36,816 bases of DNA from an uncultured Acidimicrobiia bacterium (lineage in GTDB: Bacteria > Actinomycetota > Acidimicrobiia > Spongiisociales > JAOTWH01): the NCBI GenBank assembly GCA_964347285.1, contig CAYFYE010000012.1, positions 1-36,816 of the forward strand, given 5' to 3'. The position numbers and the translations under genes were made by a program. This document shows positions 14,348-36,816 of this stretch, piece after piece (position 1 is the first letter of the stretch; every line of letters begins with the position of its first letter). Under the pieces are notes generated by a model. The model was not told the origin of the DNA. It did no database searches and worked only from the letters and a program-made list of their open reading frames with translations.

Positions 14348-14350
14348 GTC

Positions 14351-18389: not shown

Positions 18390-18433
18390 CCGGCGACCGG
18401 CGGCTGCATCGGCCCGCCTGCCAGACTCGCCGG

Positions 18434-21296: not shown

Positions 21297-22751
21297 ATGC
21301 GCACCGAGCTTCTCATCGATGGGCGGTTCGTCGAGGGCTCCGGCGAGTACTTCGACATCCTCGACCCAGCCACCGAAAAGGTGTATGCCGCGATCCGATC
21401 GGCGGAGCCCGAACAGGTCGACGAGGCAGTGGCGGCCGCCGCAGCCGCCTTCGAGGGGTGGCGGTCGGCTTCCCAGGAGGATCGCTCCGCCGCCCTCAGG
21501 GCCGTGGCCGGTGCCATCCGCGATCGTGCCGACGAGATCGCCGACGTGGTCACGCACGAGACCGGCAGGGCCCGCACCCGTAACGTCTTCTACGTCGAGT
21601 ACACGGCCCGGGTGTTCGAGCAATACGCCGAGCTGGCCCGGGTCCACGGCGGCCGGGTGGCGCCGTCCAACGAGGCCGGCCAGCTGTCGCTGGTGCTGCG
21701 GGTCCCCTACGGGGTCGTGGCGGCCCTCGTGCCGTGGAACTACCCGCTCACGCTGCTCGCGTTCAAGGCCGCCCCGGCCTTGGCCACCGGCAATGCCGTC
21801 GTCATCAAGCCGGCGCCCGAGACCACCGCCACCACCCTCCTCCTGGGCGAGATCCTCGACAAACACCTTCCCGCCGGTGTGGTCAACGTCGTGGCCGGAG
21901 GGGGCGGGGTGGGCGCATGCCTCGTCGAACACCCCGGAGTCCACCTCGTTGCGTTCACGGGCTCCACGGAGACCGGCAAGGACATCGGCTCGGTGTGCGG
22001 CCGCTTGGCCAAGCCGGTCCGCCTGGAGCTGAGCGGCAAGGACCCGGCCGTCGTGTTCCCCGACGTCGACGTGGAGGCCGCCGCCCACGGCGTGGCGTGG
22101 GCCGCGTTCCTCAACGCCGGCCAGGTGTGTACGTCCACCGAACGCGCCTACGTCCACGCCGACGTGTACGACCGGTTCGTCGAGCGGGTGACCACACTGG
22201 CTGCCGCGCTGCGGGTCGGCAACCCCTTCGATGCCCAAACCCAGGTCGGTCCGATGCAGAGCGAGCAGGGACGGCAACGAGTCCTCGATCAGCTCGGGGC
22301 GGCGATCGCCGACGGCGCCAAGATCCTCTACGGCGGCGATCCCCTGGCCGAGCCCGGCTACTACCTGCGACCCACCGTGCTCACCAACGTCGACCACTCC
22401 ATGGACGTGATGCGCGAGGAGACGTTCGGGCCGGTGCTGCCGATCATGCCGTTCACCGACGACGACGAGGCCTTCCGGCTGGCCGGCGACACCTACTACG
22501 GGCTGGGCGCCAGCTTCTACACCCGCGACCCGTCCCGGGTGCGCCGGGCCTACGAAGAGATGGCGGTGGGAACGGTGTGGATCAACGACCCGGTGGTGGA
22601 CAACCTGGGAGCTCCGTTTGGAGGCATGCGGGGCAGCGGCGACGCCCGCGAGCTCGGGGTGGAAGCGCTGGCCTCCTTCACATCCCCGCGCCACGTGCAC
22701 TGGAACATCGACCTCGAGATCAAGCCCTGGTGGTACCGAGAGGAGGAGTGA
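21297..22751 (+). CDS. Aldehyde dehydrogenase (aminoaldehyde/betaine-aldehyde dehydrogenase-like)
   Basis: PWNYP, FTGS, LELSGKDP, LNAGQVC, EETFGP, PFGG. Confidence 0.92.
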   Translation: MRTELLIDGRFVEGSGEYFDILDPATEKVYAAIRSAEPEQVDEAVAAAAAAFEGWRSASQEDRSAALRAVAGAIRDRADEIADVVTHETGRARTRNVFYVEYTARVFEQYAELARVHGGRVAPSNEAGQLSLVLRVPYGVVAALVPWNYPLTLLAFKAAPALATGNAVVIKPAPETTATTLLLGEILDKHLPAGVVNVVAGGGGVGACLVEHPGVHLVAFTGSTETGKDIGSVCGRLAKPVRLELSGKDPAVVFPDVDVEAAAHGVAWAAFLNAGQVCTSTERAYVHADVYDRFVERVTTLAAALRVGNPFDAQTQVGPMQSEQGRQRVLDQLGAAIADGAKILYGGDPLAEPGYYLRPTVLTNVDHSMDVMREETFGPVLPIMPFTDDDEAFRLAGDTYYGLGASFYTRDPSRVRRAYEEMAVGTVWINDPVVDNLGAPFGGMRGSGDARELGVEALASFTSPRHVHWNIDLEIKPWWYREEE

Positions 22752-24061
22752 TGGGACTGCAAGGACCGAAGACCAAAGAGTGGTTCGACCGGGCCCAAAA
22801 GTCTCTGGTACTGGGGGTCTCGAGCCAGTTCCGCTACTGGGGAGCCGAGGACACCCTGGTGATCGAGCGGGGCGAGGGGCCCTACATCTGGGACATGGAC
22901 GGCAATCGCTATATCGACTACCGGCTCGGCTTCGGCCCGGTGATCCTCGGCCACGGTGATCCCGATGTGGCCGCGTCGGTGGCCGAGGCCGCGGCGGCCG
23001 GCACCACCTTCGCCCTCACCCAGCAGCGCGAGGTGGAAGCCGCCGAGACCTTCCGCAAGGCCGTGCCCTGGGTGGAGCATCTCCGCTTCTCGAACACCGG
23101 CACCGAAGTGACCATGCACGCCGTCCGCCTGGCCCGGGGCTACACGGGCCGGGAAGTCGTCGTCAAGTTCGAAGGCCAGTACCACGGGGTCCACGACTAC
23201 GTGATGTTCTCCACCGCCGGTGGCAGCCCGACCTCGCTCGGATCGCCCTACGACCCCGTGCCGCTGCAGAGCTCCTCGGGCATCCCCGAGGCCATCCGCG
23301 GCCTCATCCGCACGCTGCCGTTCAACGACCTGGAGGCGGTGGAGCGCCTGTTCCGCTCCGAGGGAGGGAGCATCGCCGCCATCATCGTCGAGCCGATGCT
23401 GGGGAACTGCTTCGGTCTGATGCCGGTCGACGGCTTCCTCCCCGGCCTGCGACGCATCTGCGACGAGTACGGATCGGTGCTGATCTTCGACGAAGTCAAG
23501 ACGGGTTTTCGTCTCGCCCTGGGCGGCGCCCAGGAGTACTTCGGGGTCACCCCCGACCTGGGCACGTTCGCCAAGGCGATGGGCAACGGGTTCCCGGTCG
23601 CCGCGGTGGCGGGACGGGGCCCGGTGATCGAGGCCCTCCAACCGGGCAAGATCGTCCAGGCCGGCACCTATTCGGGCAACGGCGTCGCCGTCGCCGCCGC
23701 CAAGGCCACGATCGACCACCTCCTCACCGGTGAGCCCCTGGCGAGGATCGAAAAGGCCGGCCGGACGCTCATGGACGGAATCACCGGCGTCCTCGGCGAC
23801 CGGGGCATCGCCCACCACATCACCGGGGTCCCGGCGATGTTCTCGATCTTCCTGGCCGACGAGGCCCCGACCGACTTCCGGGACACCGCCGGCCACGACG
23901 CCGAGCTCTACGAGGCGATCGGCATGGCCATGATTCGTCGAGGGGTGTTCCCCGAGGTCGACGGACTCGAGCCGTACTTCCTGTGCGCGGCGCTGTCCGA
24001 CGAGGACGTGACCACCACCCTCACCGTGTTCGAAGAGGCGGTCGCCGAGGCGACGAGCTGA
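22751..24061 (+). CDS. Class-III aminotransferase, glutamate-1-semialdehyde aminomutase-like paralog
   Basis: DGNRYIDY, GPVILGH, NTGTE, FEGQYHG, LIFDEVKTGFR, FAKAMGNGFP, AGTYSGN. It lacks HemL's NSPVRA motif (has SSQFRYW). TGATG coupling to the upstream ALDH. Confidence 0.88.
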   Translation: MGLQGPKTKEWFDRAQKSLVLGVSSQFRYWGAEDTLVIERGEGPYIWDMDGNRYIDYRLGFGPVILGHGDPDVAASVAEAAAAGTTFALTQQREVEAAETFRKAVPWVEHLRFSNTGTEVTMHAVRLARGYTGREVVVKFEGQYHGVHDYVMFSTAGGSPTSLGSPYDPVPLQSSSGIPEAIRGLIRTLPFNDLEAVERLFRSEGGSIAAIIVEPMLGNCFGLMPVDGFLPGLRRICDEYGSVLIFDEVKTGFRLALGGAQEYFGVTPDLGTFAKAMGNGFPVAAVAGRGPVIEALQPGKIVQAGTYSGNGVAVAAAKATIDHLLTGEPLARIEKAGRTLMDGITGVLGDRGIAHHITGVPAMFSIFLADEAPTDFRDTAGHDAELYEAIGMAMIRRGVFPEVDGLEPYFLCAALSDEDVTTTLTVFEEAVAEATS

Positions 24062-24075
24062 GAAAGGAACAACCG

Positions 24076-25494
24076 ATGGACCAATCCCCGGCCCGCATCG
24101 GCGGGCGAGCCGTCACCACCGAACGCTCCATAGAGGTCCGCAATCCCTACGACGGCACCGTCGTCGGACTCGTTCCGGCCTGCACGGCCGATCACGTCGA
24201 CGAGGCGTGCCGGGCCGCCCAGGCCGCCCTGGAGAGGGCCGACTTCCCCCAGTATCGGAGGGCCGAGGTGCTGGAGCGGACCGCCGGGCTCATTGCCGAC
24301 CGGGTCGACGACCTGGGGCGAACGATCGCCCTGGAAGCGGGCAAACCGATCACCGCCGCCCGGACCGAGGCGGCCCGGTGCGTGGACACCCATACGTTCG
24401 CCGCCGTCGAGGCCCGCAAGCTGGCCGGCGAGATGATCCCCATGGAGGCGTCCAACACGGGGGCGGGCCGTATCGCCTTCGCCCTGCGCGTCCCCATCGG
24501 GGTCGTGGCCGCCATCAGTCCGTTCAACTTCCCTCTGAACCTGGTGGCCCACAAGGTGGCGCCGGCGATCGCCGCCGGGTGCCCGGTGGTGTTGAAGCCG
24601 GCCTCGGCCACTCCGCTGTCGGCGCTGGCCCTGGTCGATCTGCTCATCGAGGCCGGAATGCCCGAGGACTGGGTATCGGTGGTCACCGGGTCGGGCAAGG
24701 AGGTGGGCGATCCCCTGGTGGAACACCCCATTCCCAAGCTGATCTCCTTTACCGGCAGCCCGGCGGTCGGCTGGGACATTCCCGCCAAGGCGCCCCGCAA
24801 GAAGGTGTCTCTGGAGCTGGGCTCGAATTCTCCGGTCATCGTCGAACCCGACGCCGACCTGGACCGGGTGGCCGCCAAGGTCAGGGTGGGCGGATTTACC
24901 TACGCCGGCCAGTCGTGCATCTCCACCCAGCGCGTGCTCGTCCATCACTCCATCCAGGACTCGCTGGTGAAGGTGCTCAAGGACGCCGTCGAGTCGCTGG
25001 TGGTCGGGGATCCCCTCGACGAGGCCACCGACGTCGGACCGCTGATCGCCCCCGAGGAAACCGAGCGGGTCCACCGCTGGATCGACGAGGCACTGGGCGA
25101 CGGCGCCGAGTTGGTGGCCGGGGGTACGGTCCAGGGTGGGCTGCTGGCCCCGACCGTGGTCAACAACGTCGACCCGGCCGCCGACCTGTGCGCCCGCGAG
25201 GTGTTCGGCCCGGTGGTGGTGGTGATCCCCTACGACGATTTCGACGACGCCATCACCATGGCCAACGATTCCGACTTCGGCCTCCACGCCGGCGTGTTCA
25301 CCTCCGACGTGGCCAAGGCGATGGAGGCGGCTCGGCGGCTCGATTTCGGAGGGGTACTGATCAACGACGTGCCCACCTACCGGGCCGACCAGCAGCCCTA
25401 CGGAGGCGTCAAGGGATCGGGCAACACCCGCGAAGGCCCCGCCTATGCCGTGGCCGAGATGACCGAGCTGCGCTTCGTCGCCATCTCCCCCTGA
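24076..25494 (+). CDS. Aldehyde dehydrogenase (lactaldehyde dehydrogenase/GapN-like subfamily)
   Basis: ISPFNFPLNL, FTGS, LELGSNSP, YAGQSC, EVFGP, PYGGVKGSG. SD AAAGGA before the ATG at 24076. Confidence 0.92.
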   Translation: MDQSPARIGGRAVTTERSIEVRNPYDGTVVGLVPACTADHVDEACRAAQAALERADFPQYRRAEVLERTAGLIADRVDDLGRTIALEAGKPITAARTEAARCVDTHTFAAVEARKLAGEMIPMEASNTGAGRIAFALRVPIGVVAAISPFNFPLNLVAHKVAPAIAAGCPVVLKPASATPLSALALVDLLIEAGMPEDWVSVVTGSGKEVGDPLVEHPIPKLISFTGSPAVGWDIPAKAPRKKVSLELGSNSPVIVEPDADLDRVAAKVRVGGFTYAGQSCISTQRVLVHHSIQDSLVKVLKDAVESLVVGDPLDEATDVGPLIAPEETERVHRWIDEALGDGAELVAGGTVQGGLLAPTVVNNVDPAADLCAREVFGPVVVVIPYDDFDDAITMANDSDFGLHAGVFTSDVAKAMEAARRLDFGGVLINDVPTYRADQQPYGGVKGSGNTREGPAYAVAEMTELRFVAISP

Positions 25495-25539: not shown

Positions 25540-26547
25540 TCAGCCGGGCGGGGCGGTAGTGCCTCGCTCCACCAGCGACGGGGCCATCACCAGGTGCTCG
25601 GCCCCGGTCCGCCCGTGGTCGAGCCGCTCCGACAGGAGCCGCATGGCCGCCGCCCCCATTTCGAAGCGGGGCTGGTCCACGGTGGTGAGCGAGATGTGCT
25701 GGAGGCCGGCAATCGACGTGTTGTCGTAGCCGACCAGCGACACCTCGCCGGGGACGTCCAGACCGCGCTCGCCCAGCACCCCGAGCGCACCCAGGGCGGC
25801 CATGTCGTTGGCGGCCAGAATCGCCGTGGGGCGGGGGCGGCGGTCGAGGAGCTCTTCGGTTCCCCGGACTCCGCCCTCTTCGGTGAAGGCGCCCCGGGCC
25901 ACCTGGACGTGAGCCGCCAGGCCCAAGTCGGTCATGGTGGCCTCGTAGGCGTGGCGCCGCACCTTGGCGGCCGGAGCGGCTCCTCCATCGACATGGGCGA
26001 TCCGCCGATGCCCGAGGCCGGCCAGGTGCTCGACCGCCGCCCGGACGCCGGCCCGATCGTCGTTGACCACGCTGTCCACGGCGGCATTCCGGGTCGCCCG
26101 GCCCACGATGACCACCGGAGCCACTCGGGCCGCTTCGGCGATCTTGCCGATGCCCAGCTGGGGGCCGGCCAGGACGAGGCCGTCCACCCGTAGCTCGAGG
26201 AGCATCTCCACCGCGGCCGCCTCCTGGCCGACCGCCCGATTGCCGGTGTCGATGAGCGGGTGGTAGCCCGCCCGTTTGGCCTCGTCGTCCAGGCCGTCTA
26301 CCACCTCCGCGAAGAAGGGGTTGTGCAGGTCGGACAGCATGACGCCGATGACCCGGGTCCGGCGGCTCACCAGGCTGCGGGCCACCCGGTCGGGCCGATA
26401 GCCGAGTTCCTCGATGGCCTGCCACACGGCCCTCCGCTTGTCGTCGCTGACGTGAGGGGCATCCCGCAGCACCAGCGACACCAGCGATTTGGACACACCG
26501 GCCCGGGCGGCGACGTCGTGGATGGTGGGCCTGGCCGTGGCTTTCAT
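25540..26547 (-). CDS. LacI-family transcriptional regulator
   Basis: HTH PTIHDVAARAGVSKSLVSLVL, LGYRPDRVARSL, NPFF, NDMAALG, VGYDN, LTTVDQP. Start at the ATG at 26547; TATAGT -10 upstream. Confidence 0.95.
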   Translation of the reverse strand: MKATARPTIHDVAARAGVSKSLVSLVLRDAPHVSDDKRRAVWQAIEELGYRPDRVARSLVSRRTRVIGVMLSDLHNPFFAEVVDGLDDEAKRAGYHPLIDTGNRAVGQEAAAVEMLLELRVDGLVLAGPQLGIGKIAEAARVAPVVIVGRATRNAAVDSVVNDDRAGVRAAVEHLAGLGHRRIAHVDGGAAPAAKVRRHAYEATMTDLGLAAHVQVARGAFTEEGGVRGTEELLDRRPRPTAILAANDMAALGALGVLGERGLDVPGEVSLVGYDNTSIAGLQHISLTTVDQPRFEMGAAAMRLLSERLDHGRTGAEHLVMAPSLVERGTTAPPG

Positions 26548-26578: not shown

Positions 26579-26590
26579 TGGAACGTTCCA
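26579..26590. promoter_or_regulatory. LacI-type operator
   Basis: Perfect palindrome TGGAACGTTCCA with central CG, between the divergent lacI and iolG-like genes; near-copies at 36345 and 36362. Confidence 0.85.
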
Positions 26591-26629: not shown

Positions 26630-27628
26630 ATGCGGGTGGGAGTCATCGGAGTCGGGCGGATCGGGTCCCTCCATGCCGCCGCCCTGGCCGCTCATCCCGA
26701 GGTCGACTCGCTGCTCCTGGCCGACGCCGACAACGCCCGGGCCGCCCAAGTAGCCAACCGCCTCGGTGTCGAGGCGTCGACCTCGGTCGAATCCGTCTTT
26801 GGCGACGTCGAGGCGGTGGCCATCGCTGCGCCCACGAGTTTCCACGCCGAGCTCATTCATCGGGCCGCCGACGTCGACCTTCCCACCTTCTGCGAGAAGC
26901 CCATCGCCCTCGACCTCGCCACCACCGCTCGAGTGGTCGATCACGTGTCCGCCGCCGGCATCCCCCTCCAGATGGGCTTCAACCGCCGCTTCGATGCCGG
27001 CTTTCGGAGAGCTCACGAGATGGTGGCCTCCGGGCGGCTCGGCACGCTCTACCTGGTGCGCACCGGCACTCACGATCCCGAGCCTCCGCCCCCCGACTAC
27101 ATCCCCCACTCCGGTGGGATCTTCACCGACATGCACATCCACGATTTCGACGCCGTCCGCTTCGTCACCGGCCGAGAGGTGGAGGAGGTCTATGCAGACG
27201 GCTCGGTGCTGATCTCGGAATCGTTCAAGCGCTTCGACGACGTCGACGTGACCGCCACCGTCCTCCGACTCGCCGGCGGAGCGCTCGGCATCGTCTCGGG
27301 TTCGCGACACGATCCGCTCGGCTACGACATCCGCATGGAGCTGTTCGGCTCGAAGGACAGCGTCGCCGTCGGAGTGGACGACCGCACCCCGCTCCGCTCT
27401 CTGGAGCCCGACGTGCCTCCTCCCCCCGGACCCGCCTATCCGTCCTTTCAGGAGCGGTTCGCCGACGCCTACCGGGCCGAGCTGGATGCCTTCATGGAGA
27501 TGGCCCAGGGACGCATGGAGAGCCCGTGCACGGCGGAGGACGCCCAGGCCGCCCTCCGGATCGCTGCGGCCGCCGCCCGCTCGCGGGCCGAGCACCGCCC
27601 GGTGCGCCTCACCGAGATCGCCCCCTGA
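26630..27628 (+). CDS. iolG: Gfo/Idh/MocA oxidoreductase, myo-inositol 2-dehydrogenase-like
   Basis: MRVGVIGVGRIG, FCEKP, GFNRRFD, HDPEPPP, SGGIFTDMHIHDFD, GYDIRMELFG, ERFADAY. Confidence 0.85.
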   Translation: MRVGVIGVGRIGSLHAAALAAHPEVDSLLLADADNARAAQVANRLGVEASTSVESVFGDVEAVAIAAPTSFHAELIHRAADVDLPTFCEKPIALDLATTARVVDHVSAAGIPLQMGFNRRFDAGFRRAHEMVASGRLGTLYLVRTGTHDPEPPPPDYIPHSGGIFTDMHIHDFDAVRFVTGREVEEVYADGSVLISESFKRFDDVDVTATVLRLAGGALGIVSGSRHDPLGYDIRMELFGSKDSVAVGVDDRTPLRSLEPDVPPPPGPAYPSFQERFADAYRAELDAFMEMAQGRMESPCTAEDAQAALRIAAAAARSRAEHRPVRLTEIAP

Positions 27629-27629: not shown

Positions 27630-28394
27630 CTATTGGGCGGTCCAGCCGCCGTCCACCACCAGCACCGACCCGGTGACCATCGCCCCGGCCGGCGACGCCA
27701 GGTAGATCACCGCGGCGGCCACGTCGGTGGTCGTTCCCACCCGGCCGATCGGGAGTCGATCGAGCACCCCCTCCAAGTAGGCGGGATCGTCGAGGCGCTC
27801 CGCCGTCCCCGGCGTGTAGATGAAGGTGGGAGCTATGGCATTGACGGTGACGCCCCGGTGAGACCATTCCAGCGCCAGCACCTTGGTGAGCATGTTCACC
27901 CCGCCCTTCGATGCCGAGTAGACGGCATGGTCGCGTATCCCCACCAGCCCGGCCTGGGAGCTCATGTTGATGATGCGCCCCTCTCCCTGTTCCACCATGA
28001 TGCGGCCGGCCGCCTGGCAGCAGAAGAAGAGCCCCTTGAGGTTGACGTCGGTCATCTCGTCCCAGTCCGCCTCGGTCACCTCCAGGGCCGGCGCATTGTC
28101 CCCCAGCCCGGCGTTGTTGACGAGGATGTGCAGGCCGCCGAAGTGGCTGCGCACCCGATCCATCGCCGCGTCGATCTGGCCCAGGTCGCGTACGTCGAGG
28201 GGCACCGCCAGGGCCCGGCCCCCGCCGGCCTCGATCTCGCCGACGAGGTCGGCGACGGCGGCCGGATCCCGGGCCGCCGCTCCCACCGCCGACCCCGCTC
28301 CGGCGAGGGCGAGAGCGACATCGTGCCCGATGCCGCGACCCGCCCCCGTGACCAGGGCGACCCGGCCGTCGAGGCGAAAGTCGGGCTGCTCCAC
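27630..28394 (-). CDS. Short-chain dehydrogenase/reductase (gluconate-5-dehydrogenase/KduD-like)
   Basis: TGAGRGIG, NNAG, YSASK, VNAIAP, VDGG. Start set to the GTG at 28394, just after the upstream gene's stop. Confidence 0.88.
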   Translation of the reverse strand: MEQPDFRLDGRVALVTGAGRGIGHDVALALAGAGSAVGAAARDPAAVADLVGEIEAGGGRALAVPLDVRDLGQIDAAMDRVRSHFGGLHILVNNAGLGDNAPALEVTEADWDEMTDVNLKGLFFCCQAAGRIMVEQGEGRIINMSSQAGLVGIRDHAVYSASKGGVNMLTKVLALEWSHRGVTVNAIAPTFIYTPGTAERLDDPAYLEGVLDRLPIGRVGTTTDVAAAVIYLASPAGAMVTGSVLVVDGGWTAQ

Positions 28395-28396
28395 CC

Positions 28397-29116
28397 TCAG
28401 TCCGGCTCGTGGATGCTGCGCATCGACCACACCAGGGTCCGCATCGTCTTGGGCTGGCGCAACACCGCCACGACGGCTGCCGCCACGTCTGCGGGGCGCA
28501 GCATCTCGTCGAGGCCGGGCATATCCGGAGTGCGGCCGGCGCCCATGGCGAATTCGGTGGCGGTGCCTCCCGGACAGATGGCGGCCACCCGGATCCCCTT
28601 CTCCCGAAGCTCGCGATCAAGAGCCCCGGCCAGGCCCACCTGGGCGAACTTGGTGGCGGCGTACACCGCCTCGTCCCCGGCTCCCCGCAGCCCGGCCACC
28701 GAGGCGACGATCACGATGTCGCCCCCGCCCTGCTCCAGGAACTTGGGAACCGCCGCCCGGATCGGCCACACCGTCCCGGCGACGTTGGTGTCGATCATGT
28801 CCTGGAGCTGATCGTCGGTCAGGTCCATGATCCCGCCGTACGCCCCGATGCCGGCATTGGCGACGAGGATGTCCAGTTTCCCGTACGCCTCGACGGCGGC
28901 CTCCACCAGCCGGTCGGCGTCCTCGCGACGGCGCACGTCGATCTCCACCGCCGTGGCCGCCTCCCCCAACTCTTCGACCAGCGCCTTCAAGCGGTCGGTG
29001 CGCCGCGCCCCCAGGACCACTCGGCCTCCTTCGGCCGCGAGGGCCCGGGCCGTGGCGGTCCCGATGCCGGCGCTGGCCCCGGTGATTGCGGTGACCGATC
29101 CCTGCAACTGCGTCAT
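28397..29116 (-). CDS. Short-chain dehydrogenase/reductase (YdfG-like, probably NADP-dependent)
   Basis: TGASAGIG, GARR, ANAG, YAATK, ICPG; SD GAGGAGGAAGG. Confidence 0.88.
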   Translation of the reverse strand: MTQLQGSVTAITGASAGIGTATARALAAEGGRVVLGARRTDRLKALVEELGEAATAVEIDVRRREDADRLVEAAVEAYGKLDILVANAGIGAYGGIMDLTDDQLQDMIDTNVAGTVWPIRAAVPKFLEQGGGDIVIVASVAGLRGAGDEAVYAATKFAQVGLAGALDRELREKGIRVAAICPGGTATEFAMGAGRTPDMPGLDEMLRPADVAAAVVAVLRQPKTMRTLVWSMRSIHEPD

Positions 29117-29131
29117 CCCTTCCTCCTCACC

Positions 29132-30979
29132 TCATACCCCGATGCGCTGGTGCTTGCGCTCGGCATCCATCTCGGCCCGGGCCACCCGCACCGCCTCTCT
29201 CTCGCTGACCTCGGGCACGCCCACGTCCCACCAGGCGTCGCCCGGCGTCCACTCGTACGCATGGGTCTCCATGACGATCACCGCGCTCCGATCGGCGTTC
29301 TTGGCCCGACCGAAGGCCTCCTTGAGCTGGGCGATGGTGGACACCGTCTCCGCGTGGGCTCCCATGGCCTCGGCGTGCTTCTGGAAGTCGACGCGGAACA
29401 GCCGCTCGACCGCAGCGTGCTCGAAGAGGTTGTTGAACGGAGCCCCTCCCTTGCCTTCCTGGAGACGGTTGATGACGGCAAACCCGCCGTTGTCGCACAG
29501 CACGAAGATGACCTTTTGTCCGGTGAGCACGGTGCTGTAGATCTCCGAGTTGAGCATGAGGTACGAGCCGTCGCCGACGAACGAGACGACGTCCCGATCC
29601 GGGTGGGCCATCTTGGCGCCCCAGGCCCCACCGATCTCATAGCCCATGCAGCTGTAGCCGTACTCGCAGTCGAAGGCGCCGGGGGTCTGCACCCGCCACG
29701 TCTTGTTCAGCTCCCCGGGGAACCCGCCCGCCGCCGCCAGGGCCACATCGGTGGGTTCGGCCACCTCGTTGATCGCCTTGATCACCTGGGCGTACGAGGG
29801 CTTCTCCCCGTCCGCCGGAGGCTTGGTGGTCTCATCCACCAGCCGGTACCAGTCGGCCAGGTCGCTGCCGGCCCGCTCCAGCCACCCCGCCGGAGCCTTC
29901 CAGTCACCGAGGCCTTCGTCGAGCGCCCCCAGGGCCATCTTGGCGTCGGCGACCACCGACACCGCCCGGTGCTTGGTGGCGTCGAAGCGGGCGGCATTGA
30001 CCGCCACCAGCCGCATGTCCGGGTTCTGGAACACGGTCCACGACCCGGTGGTGAAGTCCTGGAGCCGGGTGCCCACCGCCAGCACCACGTCCGCTTCCGC
30101 CGCCAGCGCGTTGGCCGACGTGCTCCCGGTCACCCCGATCGGTCCGGCGTAGTTGGGATGGTCCCAGGTCAAAACGCCCCTTCCGGCCACGGTCTCGACG
30201 ACCGGCAGGCCGTGGCGGGCCACGAAGTCGGAGAAGTCCTCGGTGGCCAGGGAGTAGTGGATCCCACCGCCGGCGATCACCAATGGCTTTTGGGCTCCGG
30301 CCAGCACCTCGGCGGCCGCCTCGATCTCGACCGGGTCGGGTCCGGGACGGCGGACCCGCCACACCCGCGGCTCGAAGAACACCTCGGGATAGTCGAAGGC
30401 CTCTGCCTGGATGTCCTGGGACATGCCCAGGAAGGCCGGTCCGCACTCGGCCGGATCGAGCATGGTGGCGATGGCCTGGGGCAACGACTCGATGATCTGT
30501 TCGGGCCGGGTGATTCGATCCCAGTACCGGCTGACCGCCTTGAAGGCGTCGTTGACCGTCACGGTCGGATCGCCGAAGTGCTCCACCTGCTGCAGGACCG
30601 GATCGGGCAGCCGGTTGGCAAAGGTGTCGCCGGACAGCAGCAGGACCGGGAGCCGGTTGGCGTGGGCGATGCCGGCAGCGGTCACCATGTTGGTGGCTCC
30701 GGGTCCGATCGAGCTGGTGGCCACCATGATCTGGCGCCGCCGCCTGGCTTTGGCGTAGCCGATGGCGGCCATGGCCATCGACTGCTCGTTCTGGCCCCGG
30801 AAGGTGGGGAGCCGGTCCCGGACCGGTTCGAGCGCCTCGCCGAGAGCCGTCACGTTGCCGTGCCCGAAAATGGCGAAGACACCGGCAAACAGAGGCGCCT
30901 CGCCGCCGTCGAGGATGGTCCGCTGGGCGGTCAGGTACTTGACCAGCGCCTGTGCCATCGTGAGGCGAATGGTCTTCAT
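29132..30979 (-). CDS. iolD: 3D-(3,5/4)-trihydroxycyclohexane-1,2-dione acylhydrolase (TPP-dependent)
   Basis: TIRLTMAQAL, IFGHGNV, QNEQSM, SIGPGATN, PDPVLQQVE, GTRLQDFTTGS, EYGYSCMGYE, GDGSYLM, WWDVGVPEVS. Confidence 0.96.
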   Translation of the reverse strand: MKTIRLTMAQALVKYLTAQRTILDGGEAPLFAGVFAIFGHGNVTALGEALEPVRDRLPTFRGQNEQSMAMAAIGYAKARRRRQIMVATSSIGPGATNMVTAAGIAHANRLPVLLLSGDTFANRLPDPVLQQVEHFGDPTVTVNDAFKAVSRYWDRITRPEQIIESLPQAIATMLDPAECGPAFLGMSQDIQAEAFDYPEVFFEPRVWRVRRPGPDPVEIEAAAEVLAGAQKPLVIAGGGIHYSLATEDFSDFVARHGLPVVETVAGRGVLTWDHPNYAGPIGVTGSTSANALAAEADVVLAVGTRLQDFTTGSWTVFQNPDMRLVAVNAARFDATKHRAVSVVADAKMALGALDEGLGDWKAPAGWLERAGSDLADWYRLVDETTKPPADGEKPSYAQVIKAINEVAEPTDVALAAAGGFPGELNKTWRVQTPGAFDCEYGYSCMGYEIGGAWGAKMAHPDRDVVSFVGDGSYLMLNSEIYSTVLTGQKVIFVLCDNGGFAVINRLQEGKGGAPFNNLFEHAAVERLFRVDFQKHAEAMGAHAETVSTIAQLKEAFGRAKNADRSAVIVMETHAYEWTPGDAWWDVGVPEVSEREAVRVARAEMDAERKHQRIGV

Positions 30980-31764
30980 CGATTACTCCTCTCCCCGGTT
31001 GACCACGAACGTACTTCTTCCAGGTACCGGCGCATGGAGCGGCTGACGAATCCCTCGATCCCGGTGGCCAGGTAGCGGGCCCCCCGCTCCCTCCAGCGGC
31101 CGGCGCCCTCGGCGTTGCCGACGAACACACCCAGCGCCTTGTCGGATTCCAGCACGGCAGCGGTCGCCTCCTCCAGAGCGGCCACCACCGAGGGGTGATC
31201 GGTCTGCCCGGGCACGCCCAGCGAGTGAGACAAATCGGTGGGCCCCAGGAACAGGACGTCGATGCCGTCCACGGCCAGGTAGTCGTCGATGCGCTCGATC
31301 GCCTCGCCGGTCTCGAGGTGGATCACCACCAGCGTCTCGGCGTTGGCCCGGGCCGTGTAGTCGGCCAGTGATTCGGTCTGGCCGAAGTCGGCGGCCCGGC
31401 TCCCCGCCAGGCCGCGGACTCCGCGCGGGTGATACTTGACCGCCTGCACGGCCGCCTCCGCCTCCTCGCCTGAGTTCACCCAGGGAACGTGGATTCCGTG
31501 CACGCCGGCATCGAGGAAGCGCAGGATGATGTGAGGCTGGTTGGTCGTCACCCGCGCCAGCGGGGTGACCCCCCGCAGCTCCACCGCCCGGGCGAAGTTC
31601 TCGATGTCGGCCGGAACGAACGTGCCGTGTTCCCCGTCTGCGATCACGAAGTCCCACCCCTGGAGAGCGACCAGCTCCGCAAGAGCGGGATCGGGGTACT
31701 TGACGAAGCAGCCCAGCACCACGCCGCCTTCGGCGAGCTTGGCCTTGGTCGTGTTGACGAGCAT
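30976..31764 (-). CDS. HpcH/HpaI class II pyruvate aldolase family protein
   Basis: DGEHG, LARV, LDAG, YHPRGVRG, LET, FLGPTDLS. The stop overlaps the iolD start (ATGA). Confidence 0.9.
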   Translation of the reverse strand: MLVNTTKAKLAEGGVVLGCFVKYPDPALAELVALQGWDFVIADGEHGTFVPADIENFARAVELRGVTPLARVTTNQPHIILRFLDAGVHGIHVPWVNSGEEAEAAVQAVKYHPRGVRGLAGSRAADFGQTESLADYTARANAETLVVIHLETGEAIERIDDYLAVDGIDVLFLGPTDLSHSLGVPGQTDHPSVVAALEEATAAVLESDKALGVFVGNAEGAGRWRERGARYLATGIEGFVSRSMRRYLEEVRSWSTGERSNR

Positions 31765-32658
31765 TCAGTCCATTCCTAGTCGATCGCAGAACTCCCGGTT
31801 GTGCCGAGCCGCCGCCACCACGTCGATGCCGGACCCGGGCAGCACGTCTTGCTCGACCACCGCCCATCCGGCGTAGGTCGTGGCGTCGAGGGCGTCGCGC
31901 AGGGCGGCGAAGTCCACACTCCCCTCGCCCAATAGAGGAAACACGCCCTCTTCCACGGCGCGAAAGTAGTCCCACTCGTTGGCCCGGACCCGTTCGAGAA
32001 CGGCCCGGTCGCAGTCCTTGAGGTGGAGATAGCGGACCCGGTCGCCCCAGCGCCGGCACAGCTCCACCGGATCGTCCCCACCGTAGGCGGCGTGGCCGGT
32101 GTCGAGGCACAGCCCGACCAGTTCGGGATCCGAGTCCTCCAGCAGCCGATCTACCTCCCAGGGGGCTTCCACCCAGGCCCCGACATGGGGGTGGTACACG
32201 GTGCGCAGGCCGAAGCGATCGGCGGCCCGTCCGGCAAACTCCTCCAGATTGACCACGAAACGCCTCCAGTCGTCCCCGTCGAGACCGTCCTCGGGCCGGA
32301 TGCGGCCCGCCCTTTCGGCACGGACGGAGTCGACAAACAGGGCGTCGGACAGGACCACCCACTCGCACTCCATGGCGCCGAGGAATGCGATCACCTCCGC
32401 CGCCTCTCGCGCCTCATCGGGACGCCGTCGGGGGTCCACCAGGTTCAGCGGCACGAAGGCCGAGATCAGCTCGAGGCCCCGCTCGGACAGCTCGGCGGAC
32501 AGGCGGGCCGGCTCGAGGGGAAGGAACCCGAACGGGCCCAGCTCGGTACCCGAGTAGCCGGCCGCCGCCATCCCGTCGAGCACCTCGTTCCAGGGCGGCA
32601 CCCCGGGGGTGTCCTTGAGGAGCACCCCCCAATTCACCGGGGCGGTGGCGATTCTCAC
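31765..32658 (-). CDS. iolE: Inosose dehydratase IolE-like TIM-barrel protein
   Basis: APVNWG, GTELGPFGFLP, YHPHVG, LCLDTGH, HLKD, LGEGSVDF, VVEQD; located in the iolD operon. Confidence 0.75.
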   Translation of the reverse strand: MRIATAPVNWGVLLKDTPGVPPWNEVLDGMAAAGYSGTELGPFGFLPLEPARLSAELSERGLELISAFVPLNLVDPRRRPDEAREAAEVIAFLGAMECEWVVLSDALFVDSVRAERAGRIRPEDGLDGDDWRRFVVNLEEFAGRAADRFGLRTVYHPHVGAWVEAPWEVDRLLEDSDPELVGLCLDTGHAAYGGDDPVELCRRWGDRVRYLHLKDCDRAVLERVRANEWDYFRAVEEGVFPLLGEGSVDFAALRDALDATTYAGWAVVEQDVLPGSGIDVVAAARHNREFCDRLGMD

Positions 32659-32686
32659 GCCGACCGGGGCCGGGCCGGTGCGGGCA

Positions 32687-34111
32687 TCAGTCCCGGTCCA
32701 CGTCGTGGAACACGACGGTCTTGAGCTCGGTCATCTCCTCGGCGGCGTAGCGGGGGCCTTCCTTGCCGATCCCGCTGCCCTTCAGCCCCCCGTAAGGCAT
32801 GAAGTCGGCTCGCCACAAAGGAGACCAGTTGATGTGCACGTTGCCGGATTCCACTTCGCCGACAAAGCGCATGGCGTGGTTGATGTTGCGGGTGAAGATG
32901 GAGGCGCTGAGTCCGTAGTCGGTGTCGTTGGCCATCGCGATGGCCTCGTCGATGGTCTCCACCGGAGCCACGCCCATCGCCGGACCGAACAGCTCGTCGA
33001 CGGCGATGCGCATCCCCGGGGTCATGTCGGCCACCACCGTCGGCTGGAAGCGGGCGCCGTCGTGCTCACCGCCGGCCACCACCCGGGCCCCTCCCTCCCG
33101 GGCCTCGCCGATCCACGCTGCCACCCGCTCCGCCTCACCGGCCGAGATCATCGGTCCCAGCCGGGTGTCGTCGAGGGAAGGATCGGCTACTGAAATCGGG
33201 GCCACGGCCTCTTCCAGCGCGCCGAGGAAACCGTCGTAGATCTGCTGGTGGACGTAGATGCGCTGCAGCGACAGGCACACCTGCCCGGCGTTCACGGTGC
33301 CGGCCACCGCAGCGATCTCGGCGGCCCGCTCCAGGTCGGCGTCCGGCAACACGATCATCGGCGAGTTCGACCCCAGCTCCAGCGACAGGCGCTTCACCCC
33401 GGCCACCCGGGCGATCGCCTCGCCCACCGCCGTGCTCCCGGTGAAGCTGATCTTGCGTACCCGCCCGTCGGCACACAGCGCCGGCCCCACCTCGCTGCCC
33501 CTTCCGGTGAGGCATTGGATGCCGAGCTCGGGCAGGCCGGCCTCCAACAGCGCCTCGGTGAGCTTGAGGGCGGCCAGCGGGGTCTGGTTGGCCGGCTTGA
33601 GGATGACGGCGTTGCCGGTGGCCAGGGCCGGACCGACCTTGTGCACTACGAGCAGCAGCGGATAGTTGAAGGGGCTGATCGTCACCACCACTCCGGCCGG
33701 GACCCGCACGGTGAAGCCCATCTTTCCCACCGCACCCGGTTGCGCATCGAGTGGCAGCGTTTCGCCCCGGAGCTGTGAGCCCTCGAACGCCGAGAGGCGC
33801 AGGAGCTCGGCCGATCGGGTGGCCTCGGTCCGTGCCTCCGAAATGGGCTTGCCGACCTCGGCACTGATCGTGGCGGCGATGTCGTCGAGCCGGGCGTCGA
33901 GCAGGTCGGCGGCCCGGTTGAGGATCGCCGCCCGCTCGGCGGCCGTCAGCGACCGCATCGCGGCCGCCCCCCGGTGGGCGGCCGCCAGCGCCATCTCGAC
34001 CTCTTTCGGTCCCGCCGCCGGCACCACCTCGATGGGCTCGCCGGTGTAGGGAGCGATGATCGTGTCCTCGGCGCCGGCCCCCCGCCAGGCGCCGTCGACG
34101 TACATCTTCAT
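32687..34111 (-). CDS. Aldehyde dehydrogenase (non-CoA-acylating type)
   Basis: ISPFNYP, FTGS, LELGSNSP, NAGQVC, ELFGP, PYGGLKGSG. SD AAGGAG 6 nt before the ATG at 34111. Confidence 0.92.
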   Translation of the reverse strand: MKMYVDGAWRGAGAEDTIIAPYTGEPIEVVPAAGPKEVEMALAAAHRGAAAMRSLTAAERAAILNRAADLLDARLDDIAATISAEVGKPISEARTEATRSAELLRLSAFEGSQLRGETLPLDAQPGAVGKMGFTVRVPAGVVVTISPFNYPLLLVVHKVGPALATGNAVILKPANQTPLAALKLTEALLEAGLPELGIQCLTGRGSEVGPALCADGRVRKISFTGSTAVGEAIARVAGVKRLSLELGSNSPMIVLPDADLERAAEIAAVAGTVNAGQVCLSLQRIYVHQQIYDGFLGALEEAVAPISVADPSLDDTRLGPMISAGEAERVAAWIGEAREGGARVVAGGEHDGARFQPTVVADMTPGMRIAVDELFGPAMGVAPVETIDEAIAMANDTDYGLSASIFTRNINHAMRFVGEVESGNVHINWSPLWRADFMPYGGLKGSGIGKEGPRYAAEEMTELKTVVFHDVDRD

Positions 34112-34122
34112 GGGCAACTCCT

Positions 34123-35295
34123 TCAGTCGAGACGCAGGGTCTGCACGTCCTCCCAGGCGCCACTCTCCCACGAGCGCATCATGGCCGCCTGGACGTCGGC
34201 CACCGCCAGGGCCTCGGCCAGTCCCGGCGCCCCCTGCGTCCCCGAAGCCACCGTCCGCAGAAACTCGAAGGCTTCGATGACCTTGAGATCCTCGTAGCTG
34301 AGCCCCAGCCCGTCGCCGGGCGCGAAGTTGCCGTGGTGCGGATAGGCCGGGCCGCCCAGCAGCGTCGTGTAGCCGTCGTGGTCGGGATCGCCGCTCGAGA
34401 ACACTTCCAGCTCGTTCATCCGCTCAAGGTTCCAGCGCAGGGCCCCGGTGGTGCCGCTGAACTCGAAGGCCATCTCGCTCCTCGGGCCCAACGCGGTCCG
34501 GGACGCCTCCAGGGTGCCCACCGAACCGTTCTCGAACTCGACCACGGCACCGGCGTAGTCCTCGTTGGTCACCGGGCCGGTGGGGTCGTCGGGATCGCCC
34601 ACGCCGTAGTGGGTCCCCTTGCCGGGGACGGGCAGGGGCCGCTCGGTGATGAAGGTCTTATGGGTGGCGGCCAGCCGGGCGATCGGTCCGTTGAGGTGGT
34701 GGGCCATGTCGATGGCGTGCGACATCAGATCGCCCAGGACGCCGAGCCCCGACACCTCGGCGTCGAACCGCCAGGTGCGCAGCCCCAAGGGGTTGGAACC
34801 GTACATCGAGAAGAAGCGTCCCCGGTAGTGGGTGGCGGTCCCCAGCTTGCCTTCGGCGACGAGCCGCTTGGCGTGCTGCACCATCGGTGCCCACCGGTAG
34901 TTGTATCCGACGAAACTCAGCACTCCGGCCTTGCGGGCCGCCCGCTCGATGGCGGCGGTCTCTTCGGGCGAGCGGCCCACCGGCTTCTCGCAGTAGATGT
35001 GCTTGCCGGCGGCGGCCGCCGCCTCCCCGATCTCGACGTGTTCGCTGTTCGGCGCGGTGATGTTGACCGCCTGCACGTCGGGGTGGGCGATGACCTGCTG
35101 CCAGTCGGTGGTGGCCTCATCGAAGCCCAACAGATCCTTGCCGAGCCGGGCCCGCTCCTCGACGGTGTCCGAGCACACGATCAGTCGAGGCCTCAGTTCC
35201 GAGTGGGGAAAGCGCCACGGGATCTGGCGGTAGGAGCGGCTGTGGGCATGGCCCATCCAGCCCATTCCGATGACACCGATGCCGACATCGTTCAT
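34123..35295 (-). CDS. Gfo/Idh/MocA oxidoreductase (sugar/cyclitol dehydrogenase)
   Basis: [46 protein letters not shown] overlap with the upstream gene. Confidence 0.9.
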
Positions 35296-36284
35296 GTCTC
35301 TTCCTCCTGCGGCGGCGGTTTGCGATGCTCCCACACATCGGGGTTGACGAGGTGGGACGGCCGGTCGCCCCGCAGCACCGCCAGGGCCTGCTCCAGGGCG
35401 GTGCGGTAGATGCGTTCCCGGGCCGCTCCGGTGGCCGCGGCCACGTGCGGTGTCACCACCACGTCGTCGCGGCCCAGCAGCGGACTGCCGGGAGGGGCCG
35501 GTTCCGGATCGGTGACGTCCAGGCCGGCCCCGGCCAGCCGGCCCTCGTCCAGGGCGGCCAGCAAGGCCTCTTCGTCCACCAGCCCGCCCCGTGCCGTGTT
35601 GATGAGGATCGCCCCCGGCTTCACGTTGGCGAGCGCTTCGCCATCGATCACGTGGAACGTCGCATCGGTCAGGGGCATGTGCAGGGAGATCACGTCGGCC
35701 GTGGCCAGCAGCTCGGCCGGCGACACCGCCTCCTTCACGCCGACCTCGGCCATTTCCCGGGAGTCGACCCCGGGATCGTGGGCGACCACCTCCATGTCCA
35801 GGGCCTGGGCGGCCCGGGCCACCCTCCGGCCGACTCGGCCCAGCCCCATCAGTCCCAGCCACCGTCCGGCCAGCTCCACGGCATGGTGGCCGGCGTAGAA
35901 GTCGGTGGTTCCTCCCTCGGCGAGACGGTGCTCCGCCTCTTTCACCCGCTTGGCGACCGCCAGCATCAGCGCGATCGTGTGCTCGGCGGTCGAGATGGTC
36001 GGACCGTCGGGGGTGTTGCACACCGCTATTCCCCGCTCGGTGGCGGCCGCCAGATCGACCCGATCGACCCCGATGCCGGTCCGGGCCACGACCCGCAGAT
36101 CGGGAGCCCGATCCATCACCGGACCATCGAAGGGGAGGATCGAGGCGATGGCGGCCTGAGCACTCGGCAACGAGGCAAAGGGGTCTTCGGCGGACAGATC
36201 GGCCGAACCCACCGGCACCGCGATGTCGCTGATCGAACGGGCCACATCCTCCGGCATCGGCCTCTCCGACCAGATGCGGTACAT
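35292..36284 (-). CDS. D-isomer-specific 2-hydroxyacid dehydrogenase (SerA-like core without ACT domain / hydroxypyruvate reductase-like)
   Basis: [47 protein letters not shown]. Start reset to the ATG at 36284 (SD GGGGAGGG, TATACT -10 upstream). Confidence 0.9.
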
Positions 36285-36344
36285 ATCCTGCGCCCTCCCC
36301 GAACCGTTTGACACCGCGCCGAGCCGGAGTATAGGTTTTCGCCT

Positions 36345-36373
36345 TGGAACGCTCCATGGCCTAGAACGTTCCA
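36345..36373. promoter_or_regulatory. Two tandem LacI-type operators
   Basis: TGGAACGCTCCA (36345-36356) and TAGAACGTTCCA (36362-36373), each one mismatch from the palindrome at 26579. Confidence 0.85.
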
Positions 36374-36406
36374 AAACGCCGGGGTGCTCGGGAGGAGGCG
36401 ACGAGA

Positions 36407-36816
36407 GTGCGGGTCGGGCTCATCGGGGTGGGCCGCATCGGCACGTTCCACGGCGGCGTCCTCGCCGACCATCCTGCGGTGTCGTCCCTGGTCATCGCCT
36501 CGCGGCGCCCGGAGCGGGCGGCGGTGGTGGCCGAGGAGTTGGGCGCCGAAGCCGCCCCCTCCCCTTCCGACCTCTTCGAAGCCGTCGACGCAGTGGTCAT
36601 CGCCGCCGCCACCGACGTTCACGCCGAGCTGATCCTCCGGGCCGCCGACGCCGATCTCCCCATCTTCTGCGAGAAGCCGATCGCGCTGGATCTCGAATCG
36701 ACCGACCGGGTCATCGATCACGTGCGCCGGCGTGGCGTCCCCCTCCAGGTGGGTTTTCACCGCCGTTTCGAACCCGGATACCTCCGGGCCCGGGCGCTGG
36801 TGCCCGACGGCGAGCT
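36407..36816 (+). CDS. Second IolG-like Gfo/Idh/MocA oxidoreductase, 5' part (truncated by the window end)
   Basis: SD GGAGGAGG, then GTG. My translation: MRVGLIGVGRIGTFHGGVLADHP...FCEKPIALDLESTDRVIDHV...PLQVGFHRRFEPG. Absent from the ORF track because it has no stop in the window. Confidence 0.9.
   Translation, partial: MRVGLIGVGRIGTFHGGVLADHPAVSSLVIASRRPERAAVVAEELGAEAAPSPSDLFEAVDAVVIAAATDVHAELILRAADADLPIFCEKPIALDLESTDRVIDHVRRRGVPLQVGFHRRFEPGYLRARALVPDGE

Follow-up and report, generated by a model that had tools for sequence, protein, structure and literature searches.

Organization of the inositol locus

The DNA considered here, referred to as the window (36,816 nucleotides), corresponds to the complete contig C12 of a metagenome-assembled genome (MAG) of an uncultured Acidimicrobiia bacterium. 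The MAG comprises 2.63 Mb in 187 contigs and is 90.5 % complete, and the closest public relatives of the contig are Acidimicrobiia MAGs. The window carries genes for catabolism of myo-inositol, a textbook pathway that microbiologists working on soil, the rhizosphere or the gut use as a marker. In Bacillus subtilis the canonical route runs through IolG, IolE, IolD, IolB, IolC, IolJ and IolA. The subject of the present analysis is an operon in which the gene for IolD adjoins that for a putative metal-dependent aldolase of the HpcH/HpaI family (HpcH), which we tentatively consider to be the aldolase of a branch of inositol catabolism that does not depend on the kinase IolC.

The operon is composed of eight co-directional minus-strand genes at 27630-36284 (Table 1), encoding a 2-hydroxyacid dehydrogenase (2HADH), a Gfo/Idh/MocA oxidoreductase (GFO), an aldehyde dehydrogenase (ALDH), an IolE-like dehydratase, HpcH, IolD and two short-chain dehydrogenases (SDR2 and SDR1). 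The initial annotation described eight tightly packed genes with ATGA overlaps, and scans with Pfam and NCBIfam together with inspection of start codons confirmed the genes, their coordinates and the overlaps. Its statement that no iolB, iolC, iolJ or iolA lies within the window also holds, i.e., no match to IolB or an IolC-type protein was obtained on C12, and the window ALDHs score far below the cut-off for MmsA (IolA).

At its other end the locus is split by an assembly gap, and the window end cuts iolG2. The last 62 nt of the window overlap the end of a second contig, C89 (59/62 identical), the iolG2 frame is continuous across the overlap, and the gene order across the join agrees with that of relatives such as G126; the 5' part of iolG2 in the window is 48 % identical to residues 1-135 of the G126 IolG. 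Contig C89 carries the 3' part of iolG2, a second IolE-like gene (iolE2), an inositol/rhizopine-type ATP-binding cassette (ABC) transporter (binding protein, permease and ATPase) and iolB (3767-4639; 299 bits against a cut-off of 205). Because C89 is joined to the window and carries iolB, IolB belongs to the adjacent divergent operon. The window is thus one half of an inositol regulon under predicted LacI-type control, where the eight-gene operon is divergent from iolG2-iolE2-ABC transporter-iolB on C89. The inositol-type ABC system is the only transporter found in the locus.

Table 1. Features of the inositol locus in the window (positions refer to the forward strand of the window)
Feature	Coordinates	Strand	Description
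LacI-family regulator, probable iol repressor	25540..26547	-	LacI helix-turn-helix (HTH) and Peripla_BP_1/3 domains (Pfam); in-frame ATG at 26547
Perfect palindromic operator TGGAACGTTCCA	26579..26590	.	lacI/iolG1 gap; zero-mismatch; same 12-mer in iol loci of relatives
iolG1	26630..27628	+	Inositol 2-dehydrogenase-like; TIGR04380 331 bits, just below the cut-off of 355; start read from sequence
SDR1	27630..28394	-	Short-chain dehydrogenase; 2-nt gap after SDR2
SDR2	28397..29116	-	Classical short-chain dehydrogenase; 15-nt gap after IolD
IolD	29132..30979	-	3D-(3,5/4)-trihydroxycyclohexane-1,2-dione hydrolase, thiamine diphosphate (ThDP) enzyme; ATGA overlap with HpcH
HpcH	30976..31764	-	HpcH/HpaI-family class II aldolase, PF03328; no gap after IolE-like
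IolE-like	31765..32658	-	TIM-barrel dehydratase; 28-nt gap after ALDH
ALDH	32687..34111	-	NAD(P)-dependent aldehyde dehydrogenase, PF00171; starts ~9 nt past the GFO stop
GFO	34123..35295	-	Gfo/Idh/MocA oxidoreductase; ATGA overlap onto 2HADH
2HADH	35292..36284	-	D-isomer-specific 2-hydroxyacid dehydrogenase, glycerate/glyoxylate/phosphoglycerate dehydrogenase-like
Two operator sites TGGAACGCTCCA and TAGAACGTTCCA	36345..36373	.	Divergent promoter region, 2HADH/iolG2 gap
iolG2, 5' part	36407..36816	+	PF01408; last 410 nt of the window, N-terminal 135 residues; remainder on C89

Two further features of this region are recorded here. On C89 (L009; 4690-5238, + strand) an antisense open reading frame of 182 amino acids lies between iolB and the gene for the ABC ATPase. 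It has a lipoprotein-like N-terminus and an HExxH-like motif (HEFAHH), matches no Pfam family, and occupies the same place in the loci of seven relatives at 42-55 % identity. In the window itself, positions 13109-25494 form an amine/polyamine-type catabolic region with two class-III aminotransferases, a spermidine/putrescine-type ABC transporter, a major facilitator superfamily (MFS) transporter and three further ALDHs, none of which is MmsA.

The HpcH aldolase and its partners in the operon

HpcH matches PF03328 over residues 18-240 (114 bits), and among solved structures it is closest to HpaI (4b5s) and GarL (1dxe), both aligned over the full length at 141 bits each. The motifs DGEH, PLARV (with its R), ETGEA and GPTDLS align with DGEH, PVVRP, ETREA and GPADLS of 4b5s. 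We take the catalytic and metal-binding residues of HpaI to be His45, Arg70, Glu149 and Asp175, and the corresponding His/Arg/Glu/Asp positions are conserved in the alignment. All NCBIfam equivalog models for related aldolases score below their cut-offs, i.e., HpaI (174 against 369 bits), GarL (157-160 against 393-407) and rhamnonate aldolase (124 against 441). Similar proteins fall into more than 120 clusters at ≥60 % identity, all from MAGs or metagenomes and with automatic names only. By homology, HpcH is a predicted member of an uncharacterised Acidimicrobiia subfamily of HpcH/HpaI class II aldolases.

The assignment of IolD is firm (TIGR04377, 883 bits against an equivalog cut-off of 715). 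The IolE-like protein of the window reaches 206 bits on TIGR04379 and the copy on C89 163 bits, the cut-off being 290, and the two copies are 44 % identical to each other. The operon ALDH scores 235 bits on the MMSDH model (cut-off 448.5) and is not MmsA. GFO falls in the clade of levoglucosan dehydrogenase and the scyllo-inositol dehydrogenase LgdA (PDB entries 6a3f, 272 bits, and 5ya8, 238 bits), with 310 bits on the levoglucosan dehydrogenase model NF052479 (cut-off 650), and it adjoins IolD or HpcH in most relatives. For SDR1 the best matches, all below cut-off, are GolD/DthD, KduD and gluconate 5-dehydrogenase, while SDR2 has only generic SDR matches. The label “YdfG-like” given to one of the SDRs in the initial annotation is not supported, as the best NCBIfam and PDB matches are generic SDRs.

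One observation concerns the link between HpcH and IolD. In the MAG locus L025 (7998-10619) HpcH and IolD lie in a single 873-amino-acid frame with both sets of domains. Such a fusion was considered as Rosetta-stone evidence and was not confirmed; no other fused form was found at E ≤ 1e-40, which constitutes weak evidence, and the L025 fusion may therefore be a sequencing artefact.

Predicted regulation by a LacI-type repressor

The operators were identified by sequence reading and pattern search. The only zero-mismatch TRGAACGYTCCA sites in the window are at 26579, in the lacI/iolG1 gap, and at 36345 and 36362, in the 2HADH/iolG2 gap. When up to two mismatches are allowed, the pattern occurs at 16 sites, as compared to 5.76 +/- 2.66 in shuffled sequences, where 0/100 shuffles reach 16. 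The LacI operators that had been placed above the operon are thus recovered as three exact sites in two regulatory gaps, with the LacI gene beside iolG1. A LacI HTH, a periplasmic-binding-fold sensor and palindromic predicted operators in the target promoters, i.e., the elements of a LacI-family regulon, are all present. An inverted-repeat finder applied to the two regulatory gaps (seed 6, length 12) gave no match, and a scan of 36150-36500 for sigma-70 promoters and terminators found nothing.

The same 12-mer is found directly before 2HADH, the SMP-30 lactonase (SGL) or ALDH in relatives (G399, G126, G198, G372, G502 and G538) as well as in the window, and in relatives also before IolG, IolB and LacI. 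The stand-alone SGL-HpcH loci discussed below, which carry a LysR regulator, lack the 12-mer.

Conservation of HpcH beside IolD

The distribution of HpcH was determined in a sample of 401 Acidimicrobiia genomes, 44 of which are IolD-positive, including the genome of the window (labelled G000 in all comparative counts) and the unpublished G254. An HpcH orthologue (≥55 % identity) is present in 12/44 IolD-positive genomes (G000, G399, G318, G023, G333, G372, G369, G126, G174, G336, G198 and G242) and in 4/357 IolD-negative ones. The remaining IolD-positive genomes contain only paralogues of 31-41 % identity (22 genomes) or yield no match at E ≤ 1e-20 (10 genomes). The orthologue (55-60 % identity) lies at most 30 nt from IolD in 7/12 genomes; in G318 the two genes are 11 kb apart, and the HpcH-positive G242 is split over two contig ends.

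A second sample of 401 genomes covered the Actinomycetota, with 68 IolD-positive genomes, including the unpublished G417, G512 and G559, in which no HpcH match was found. Seven genomes of one family (f65; GC 73-75 %; G420, G434, G462, G488, G514, G526 and G538) carry a second IolD paralogue (IolD2) immediately followed by an HpcH homologue. Five of these loci were compared (L081, L082 and L085-L087). The order in L082 (G538), with identities to the window proteins in brackets, is ALDH (55-56 %)-IolD2 (40-42 %)-HpcH (37-40 %)-GFO (46-47 %)-LacI-2HADH (43-46 %)-SDR-IolG-IolE; L081 (G462) has the same order from ALDH to SDR, and portions of this arrangement are seen on the shorter contigs L085-L087. 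Here, IolD2 scores ~770 bits. The f65 clusters contain the component set of the window in a different order. A genome of another family, G502, has SDR-HpcH (63 %)-2HADH-lactonase beside LacI-aldolase-IolB-IolC-IolD-GFO. HpcH is conserved beside IolD in two actinobacterial lineages, and HpcH, ALDH, 2HADH and GFO form a conserved set linked to the inositol regulon rather than a chance neighbourhood.

Orthologues of the operon ALDH (55-62 % identity) are found in iolD/HpcH clusters of G198, G369 and family f65, and the window-type enzyme is found in G000, G198, G369 and four f65 loci. The SGL lactonase is found in the loci of G399, G126, G502, G023, G333, G336, G369 and L025. ALDH and lactonase are mostly mutually exclusive; both occur only in G369, and neither is found in the stretches fetched from G318 and G372. 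This alternation fits oxidation of a sugar-like aldehyde.

Co-location and co-regulation could also mean that HpcH, 2HADH, GFO and ALDH form a non-phosphorylative sugar or sugar-acid pathway that is unrelated to inositol and merely shares its locus and its repressor. The combination of a dehydrogenase, a lactonase, an HpcH-type aldolase and an ALDH does resemble non-phosphorylative routes for deoxy-sugars or uronates, G333, G336 and G369 have the SGL-HpcH pair at a distance from their iol genes, and HpcH orthologues occur in four IolD-negative genomes. Against this reading, neither an enolase-superfamily nor an IlvD/Edd acid-sugar dehydratase gene was found in the window operon or in the scanned loci of relatives, the inositol-type ABC system is the sole transporter, HpcH overlaps or abuts IolD, and in f65 the set includes an IolD paralogue of its own. 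Because of the lack of a dehydratase and the translational coupling of HpcH to IolD, we consider an unrelated pathway to be highly improbable, and the least likely of the explanations discussed here.

The stand-alone loci have a context of their own. In L061, L064 and L068 (G333, G369 and G336, respectively) an SMP-30 lactonase-HpcH pair without an iol operator has genes for a LysR regulator and for myo-inositol-1-phosphate synthase as neighbours; L061 and L068 also have 3-hydroxyisobutyrate-dehydrogenase-like and SDR genes nearby.

Lower-pathway genes in the genome

A search of the whole genome with hidden Markov models (HMMs) gave a mixed answer to the suggestion in the initial annotation that the canonical lower pathway is missing: IolC and IolJ-type proteins are undetected, but IolB is found on the joined C89 and MmsA on C1. 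The C1 gene (11601-13028; 719 bits against a cut-off of 448.5) lies in a pyrimidine/beta-alanine context, its neighbours being genes for an aminotransferase and a dihydropyrimidinase-like protein, and a second match to the MmsA model, on C90, reaches 451 bits against the same cut-off. The other window ALDHs (19651-21090, 21297-22751 and 23983-25494) were considered as iolA and rejected; they score 223-228 bits on that model and are in an amine/polyamine context.

In this 90.5 % complete MAG the best match to the IolC model TIGR04382 is 54 bits, with a cut-off of 300, and a search with the IolC of L025 as query gave nothing better than E = 1e-6. No match to PF01116, the family of class II fructose-bisphosphate aldolases and IolJ, was found anywhere in the genome, nor did the genome contain a match to the DeoC-type aldolase of L025 or an orthologue of the LacD-type aldolase of relatives as an aldolase for 2-deoxy-5-keto-D-gluconate phosphate (DKGP). 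Both positions where iolC usually resides, i.e., after iolD and before iolB, are assembled in this genome and occupied by other genes. A stand-alone DUF2090-like class I aldolase gene on C2 (60577-63679; L019 5577-8679) was not taken for an IolJ analogue, as its neighbours are two phosphofructokinase genes and it lies outside the iol context; it is probably a glycolytic aldolase. Genes of the PfkB family are found on C23, C36 and C51, and a short contig, C180, holds a fragment of such a gene. All three genomes of the class sample that have HpcH but lack IolC, i.e., G000 (on C112), G126 and G399, encode a MOFRL glycerate kinase, while a Dak1 dihydroxyacetone kinase domain is found in 1/3 of these and not in G000.

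An alternative explanation is that the ordinary pathway operates, with IolB, IolC, a class I aldolase and MmsA, and that IolC is missing through incompleteness of the MAG or as an unrecognised kinase. The HpcH, 2HADH, GFO and ALDH genes, and the lactonase and SDR genes of relatives, would then serve to process side products or to extend the range of substrates, whether to other isomers of inositol, to L-sugars or to sugar lactones. This explanation accounts for the presence of IolB and its operator linkage in relatives, for the IolC and aldolase of most genomes with the accessory set and for the occurrence of accessory genes without HpcH. The MAG is 90.5 % complete in 187 contigs with an assembly gap inside the iol locus, and it contains the PfkB genes, the C180 fragment and the phosphofructokinase pair with the DUF2090-like aldolase. 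The clade of GFO is also consistent with such a role: according to excerpts of PMC5969746, LgdA of Paracoccus laeviglucosivorans is encoded in an inositol cluster and oxidises both scyllo-inositol and the L-glucose hemiacetal, the latter to the lactone. Yet the usual iolC positions are assembled and filled by other genes, no fragment above 54 bits or below E = 1e-6 was recovered in the two IolC searches, and two further genomes of the same architecture, each 95 % complete, also lack IolC. Furthermore, the ordinary pathway gives no account of the translational coupling of HpcH to IolD in two lineages. We consider this explanation possible but unlikely.

Exchange of HpcH for a kinase and an aldolase

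IolC was scored as present at ~295 bits or more. The three IolC-less genomes noted above (G000, G126 and G399; 90.5, 95 and 95 % complete) belong to different families and have the same architecture. Comparison of syntenic operons illustrates what changes together with HpcH. In G399 the order is SGL-2HADH-GFO-HpcH-IolD-SDRa-TIM-SDRb, without IolC, while in G303 it is SGL-2HADH-GFO-IolD-SDRa-SDRb-IolC-DeoC aldolase. Likewise, G126 has HpcH and no IolC, while G078 of the same genus has IolC and no HpcH match at E ≤ 1e-20. In G198 IolC and IolB follow IolD where the window has SDR2-SDR1. The unit that changes with HpcH in these operons is the kinase/aldolase pair, i.e., IolC and an aldolase. At the end of the HpcH operon of G399 (L057 16591-19477; L024/L057) are genes for an acylating ALDH (SauS-like, 482 bits) and a succinyl-CoA:acetate-type CoA transferase, which could provide a CoA-dependent outlet for malonate semialdehyde.

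The exchange raises the possibility that HpcH replaces the kinase and aldolase only. The IolB product 2-deoxy-5-keto-D-gluconate would then be cleaved in unphosphorylated form, either directly or after oxidation at C6, to malonate semialdehyde and dihydroxyacetone or hydroxypyruvate. This would explain why IolC plus aldolase and HpcH swap while IolB stays constant (12/12 HpcH-positive genomes of the class, 7/7 in f65 and 3/3 of the IolC-less genomes). HpcH/HpaI enzymes are, however, known for 2-oxo-acid nucleophiles, and 2-deoxy-5-keto-gluconate is not a 2-oxo acid; moreover, a Dak1 domain is found in just one of the three IolC-less genomes, and the conserved ALDH or lactonase would be without an obvious role in direct cleavage. 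The probability of this version appears low, although higher than that of an unrelated pathway.

In two IolD-positive genomes, G166 and G210 (L103 and L104), neither IolB nor IolC is detected, and an IolD only 44 % identical to that of the window is flanked by SDR genes, which may represent another non-canonical context.

A proposed kinase-independent branch

The reading that we favour, with somewhat less than even confidence, is that HpcH acts as the aldolase of a kinase-independent branch, which would run in parallel with the IolB-IolC-aldolase sequence in most genomes and be the sole detectable lower route in G000, G126 and G399. In this scheme 5-deoxy-D-glucuronate, which IolD produces, or the isomer formed from it by IolB, would be oxidised at the aldehyde end by the ALDH to form 5-deoxyglucarate; in relatives, an SDR together with the SMP-30 lactonase would take the place of ALDH. 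The 2HADH or GFO would then oxidise the D-configured alpha-hydroxyl to yield a 4-hydroxy-2-oxo dicarboxylate (3,4-dihydroxy-2-oxoadipate), which HpcH would split into hydroxypyruvate and malonate semialdehyde. Hydroxypyruvate would be reduced by 2HADH to D-glycerate and phosphorylated by the MOFRL glycerate kinase (C112) to 2-phosphoglycerate, while malonate semialdehyde would be converted to acetyl-CoA by MmsA (C1). With a glycerate kinase among its later steps, the term “kinase-free” would hold only at the C6 level. Cleavage of oxidised 5-deoxyglucuronate to hydroxypyruvate and malonate semialdehyde is plausible by analogy with known members of the family, and the scheme, whose oxidation and cleavage steps are those of the initial annotation, is the most economical use of the conserved partners. 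Malonate semialdehyde as a product also fits with the acylating ALDH and CoA transferase in the G399 operon. That HpcH, ALDH (or SDR and lactonase) and 2HADH/GFO together make up a complete, undescribed final part of inositol catabolism that is ATP-free at the C6 level, replacing IolC and the DKGP aldolase in the three IolC-less genomes and being parallel elsewhere, is a further-reaching claim that we regard as rather doubtful.

A number of observations weigh against the kinase-independent branch. In a MAG of 187 contigs a non-orthologous kinase may be present. The four IolD-negative carriers of HpcH (G150, G262, G306 and G315) have it in unrelated contexts, and in G023, G333, G336 and G369 the gene lies away from IolD, where its neighbours are genes for a lactonase and a LysR regulator and no operator is present. 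IolC is present in 9/12 HpcH-positive genomes (missing in G000, G126 and G399) and in 28/32 HpcH-negative IolD-positive genomes, including G254 (missing in G166, G170, G210 and G370), and gene strings of the order HpcH-IolD-IolC or HpcH-IolD-SDR-SDR-IolC-IolB-aldolase are found in G174, G198, G242, G372 and L025. IolB is found in 12/12 and 30/32 genomes of the two groups, respectively, and is kept in all three IolC-less genomes, being operator-adjacent just upstream in G126 and G399, while a direct-oxidation route from 5-deoxyglucuronate would not need it. In f65 the genomes also harbor a canonical IolC-IolB-IolD1 cluster (IolC in 6/7, IolB in 7/7); the two IolD clusters could represent two inositol pathways for different isomers. 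Finally, the two SDRs of the window are not conserved: SDR1 is only 27-41 % identical to proteins in the loci of relatives, and the best relative of SDR2 (46 % identity) is found in G306, near HpcH and MmsA.

The partners of HpcH are likewise found without it. Among twenty neighbourhoods of IolD in genomes that lack an HpcH orthologue, two main types are seen, and three of the twenty (G166, G210 and G370) are outside both. The plain type has LacI-IolD / IolG-IolE-transporter-IolC-IolB (e.g., G018, G074, G102, G339, G226 and G363). In the other type, which also speaks against the branch, GFO lies beside IolD, often with 2HADH, the SMP-30 lactonase and SDRa/b (e.g., G182, G378, G303, G279 and G271). 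GFO, 2HADH, lactonase and SDRs are thus not bound to HpcH and need not serve it.

From the above discussion the initial proposal can be restated. It had described the operon as a substitute lower pathway and had asked whether iolD-HpcH adjacency is conserved and anticorrelates with iolB and iolC. The adjacency is indeed conserved (in 7/12 Acidimicrobiia genomes and in f65), the set is linked to the regulon, and IolC and IolJ are undetected in the genome; on the other hand, given the IolC and IolB counts and the HpcH-IolD-IolC strings, the predicted anticorrelation is absent, and IolB and MmsA are present. The set is therefore read as a branch that runs in parallel, and in some genomes on its own, rather than as a general substitute. 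The two SDRs are not conserved members of the set. The universal retention of IolB argues for the IolB-dependent version or for the ordinary pathway with an unassembled or non-orthologous kinase.

If the branch is real, it would have consequences for how inositol catabolism is recognised in genomes. Annotation tools score the myo-inositol pathway as absent when IolC or IolJ is missing. The branch would account for genomes that are IolD-positive and IolC-negative, provide a pathway-gap rule for abundant uncultured Acidimicrobiia, and extend sugar-acid metabolism by an aldolase of new specificity and by the new intermediates 5-deoxyglucarate and dihydroxy-oxoadipate.

Comparison with known systems

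The branch, as proposed, is an undescribed variation on the known inositol pathway. A full-text literature search found no description of an HpcH-type or non-phosphorylative inositol branch. Among the matches listed for terms on 5-deoxyglucarate and 4-hydroxy-2-oxoadipate, only “4-hydroxy-2-oxoadipate” occurs and no title concerns inositol; among those listed for 5-deoxyglucuronate terms, no such branch appears in titles or abstracts.

The locus shares with the canonical iol system of B. subtilis the grouping of IolG-like and IolE-like proteins, IolD and IolB in a single locus together with a probable repressor and an ABC transporter of the inositol type; MmsA is encoded elsewhere. It differs from that system in the lack of IolC, IolJ (class II) and a DUF2090/LacD-type aldolase, in the additional HpcH, ALDH, 2HADH, GFO and SDRs, and in the LacI-type regulator. 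That the aldolase step can be taken over by non-orthologous enzymes is known from the IolC-DUF2090 variant, which is still phosphorylating, according to excerpts of Price et al. 2022 (PMC9007349). In contrast to that variant, the sole DUF2090-like gene of the present genome stands alone on C2 without an IolC domain. The long IolC frames in G198, G174 and G242 may be fusions of the IolC-DUF2090 type.

An alternative inositol pathway of Thermotoga maritima bypasses IolE and IolD by means of a second ring oxidation and hydrolysis. The proposed branch would likewise depart from the IolB/IolC/IolJ steps, but an IolE-like protein and IolD are kept here. As regards GFO, the match to LgdA (5ya8) covers the full length, and LgdA is likewise encoded in an inositol cluster according to the excerpts of PMC5969746; the difference is that the window protein scores higher to levoglucosan dehydrogenase (6a3f).

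The oxidative hexuronate route consists of uronate dehydrogenase, a lactonase, a dehydratase, and GarL or KdgD. The logic of the branch proposed here would be the same, i.e., a uronic aldehyde is converted to an aldaric acid and then to a 2-oxo acid that is cleaved in unphosphorylated form, and relatives carry an SMP-30 lactonase. No Udh-type enzyme or dehydratase was found here, however, and a dehydrogenase would create the 2-oxo group instead.

The closest counterparts of HpcH itself are HpaI, the 4-hydroxy-2-oxoheptanedioate aldolase, and GarL, the 2-dehydro-3-deoxyglucarate/galactarate aldolase, both of which split 4-hydroxy-2-oxo dicarboxylates into a 2-oxo acid and a carboxy-aldehyde. 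HpcH shares with these enzymes the PF03328 fold family, alignment over the full length and the catalytic positions, and the cleavage of a dicarboxylate is what is proposed for it. The known enzymes are found in the context of homoprotocatechuate or glucarate catabolism, while that of HpcH is inositol, and the substrate proposed for HpcH has a 3-hydroxyl group such that its cleavage would release hydroxypyruvate rather than pyruvate.

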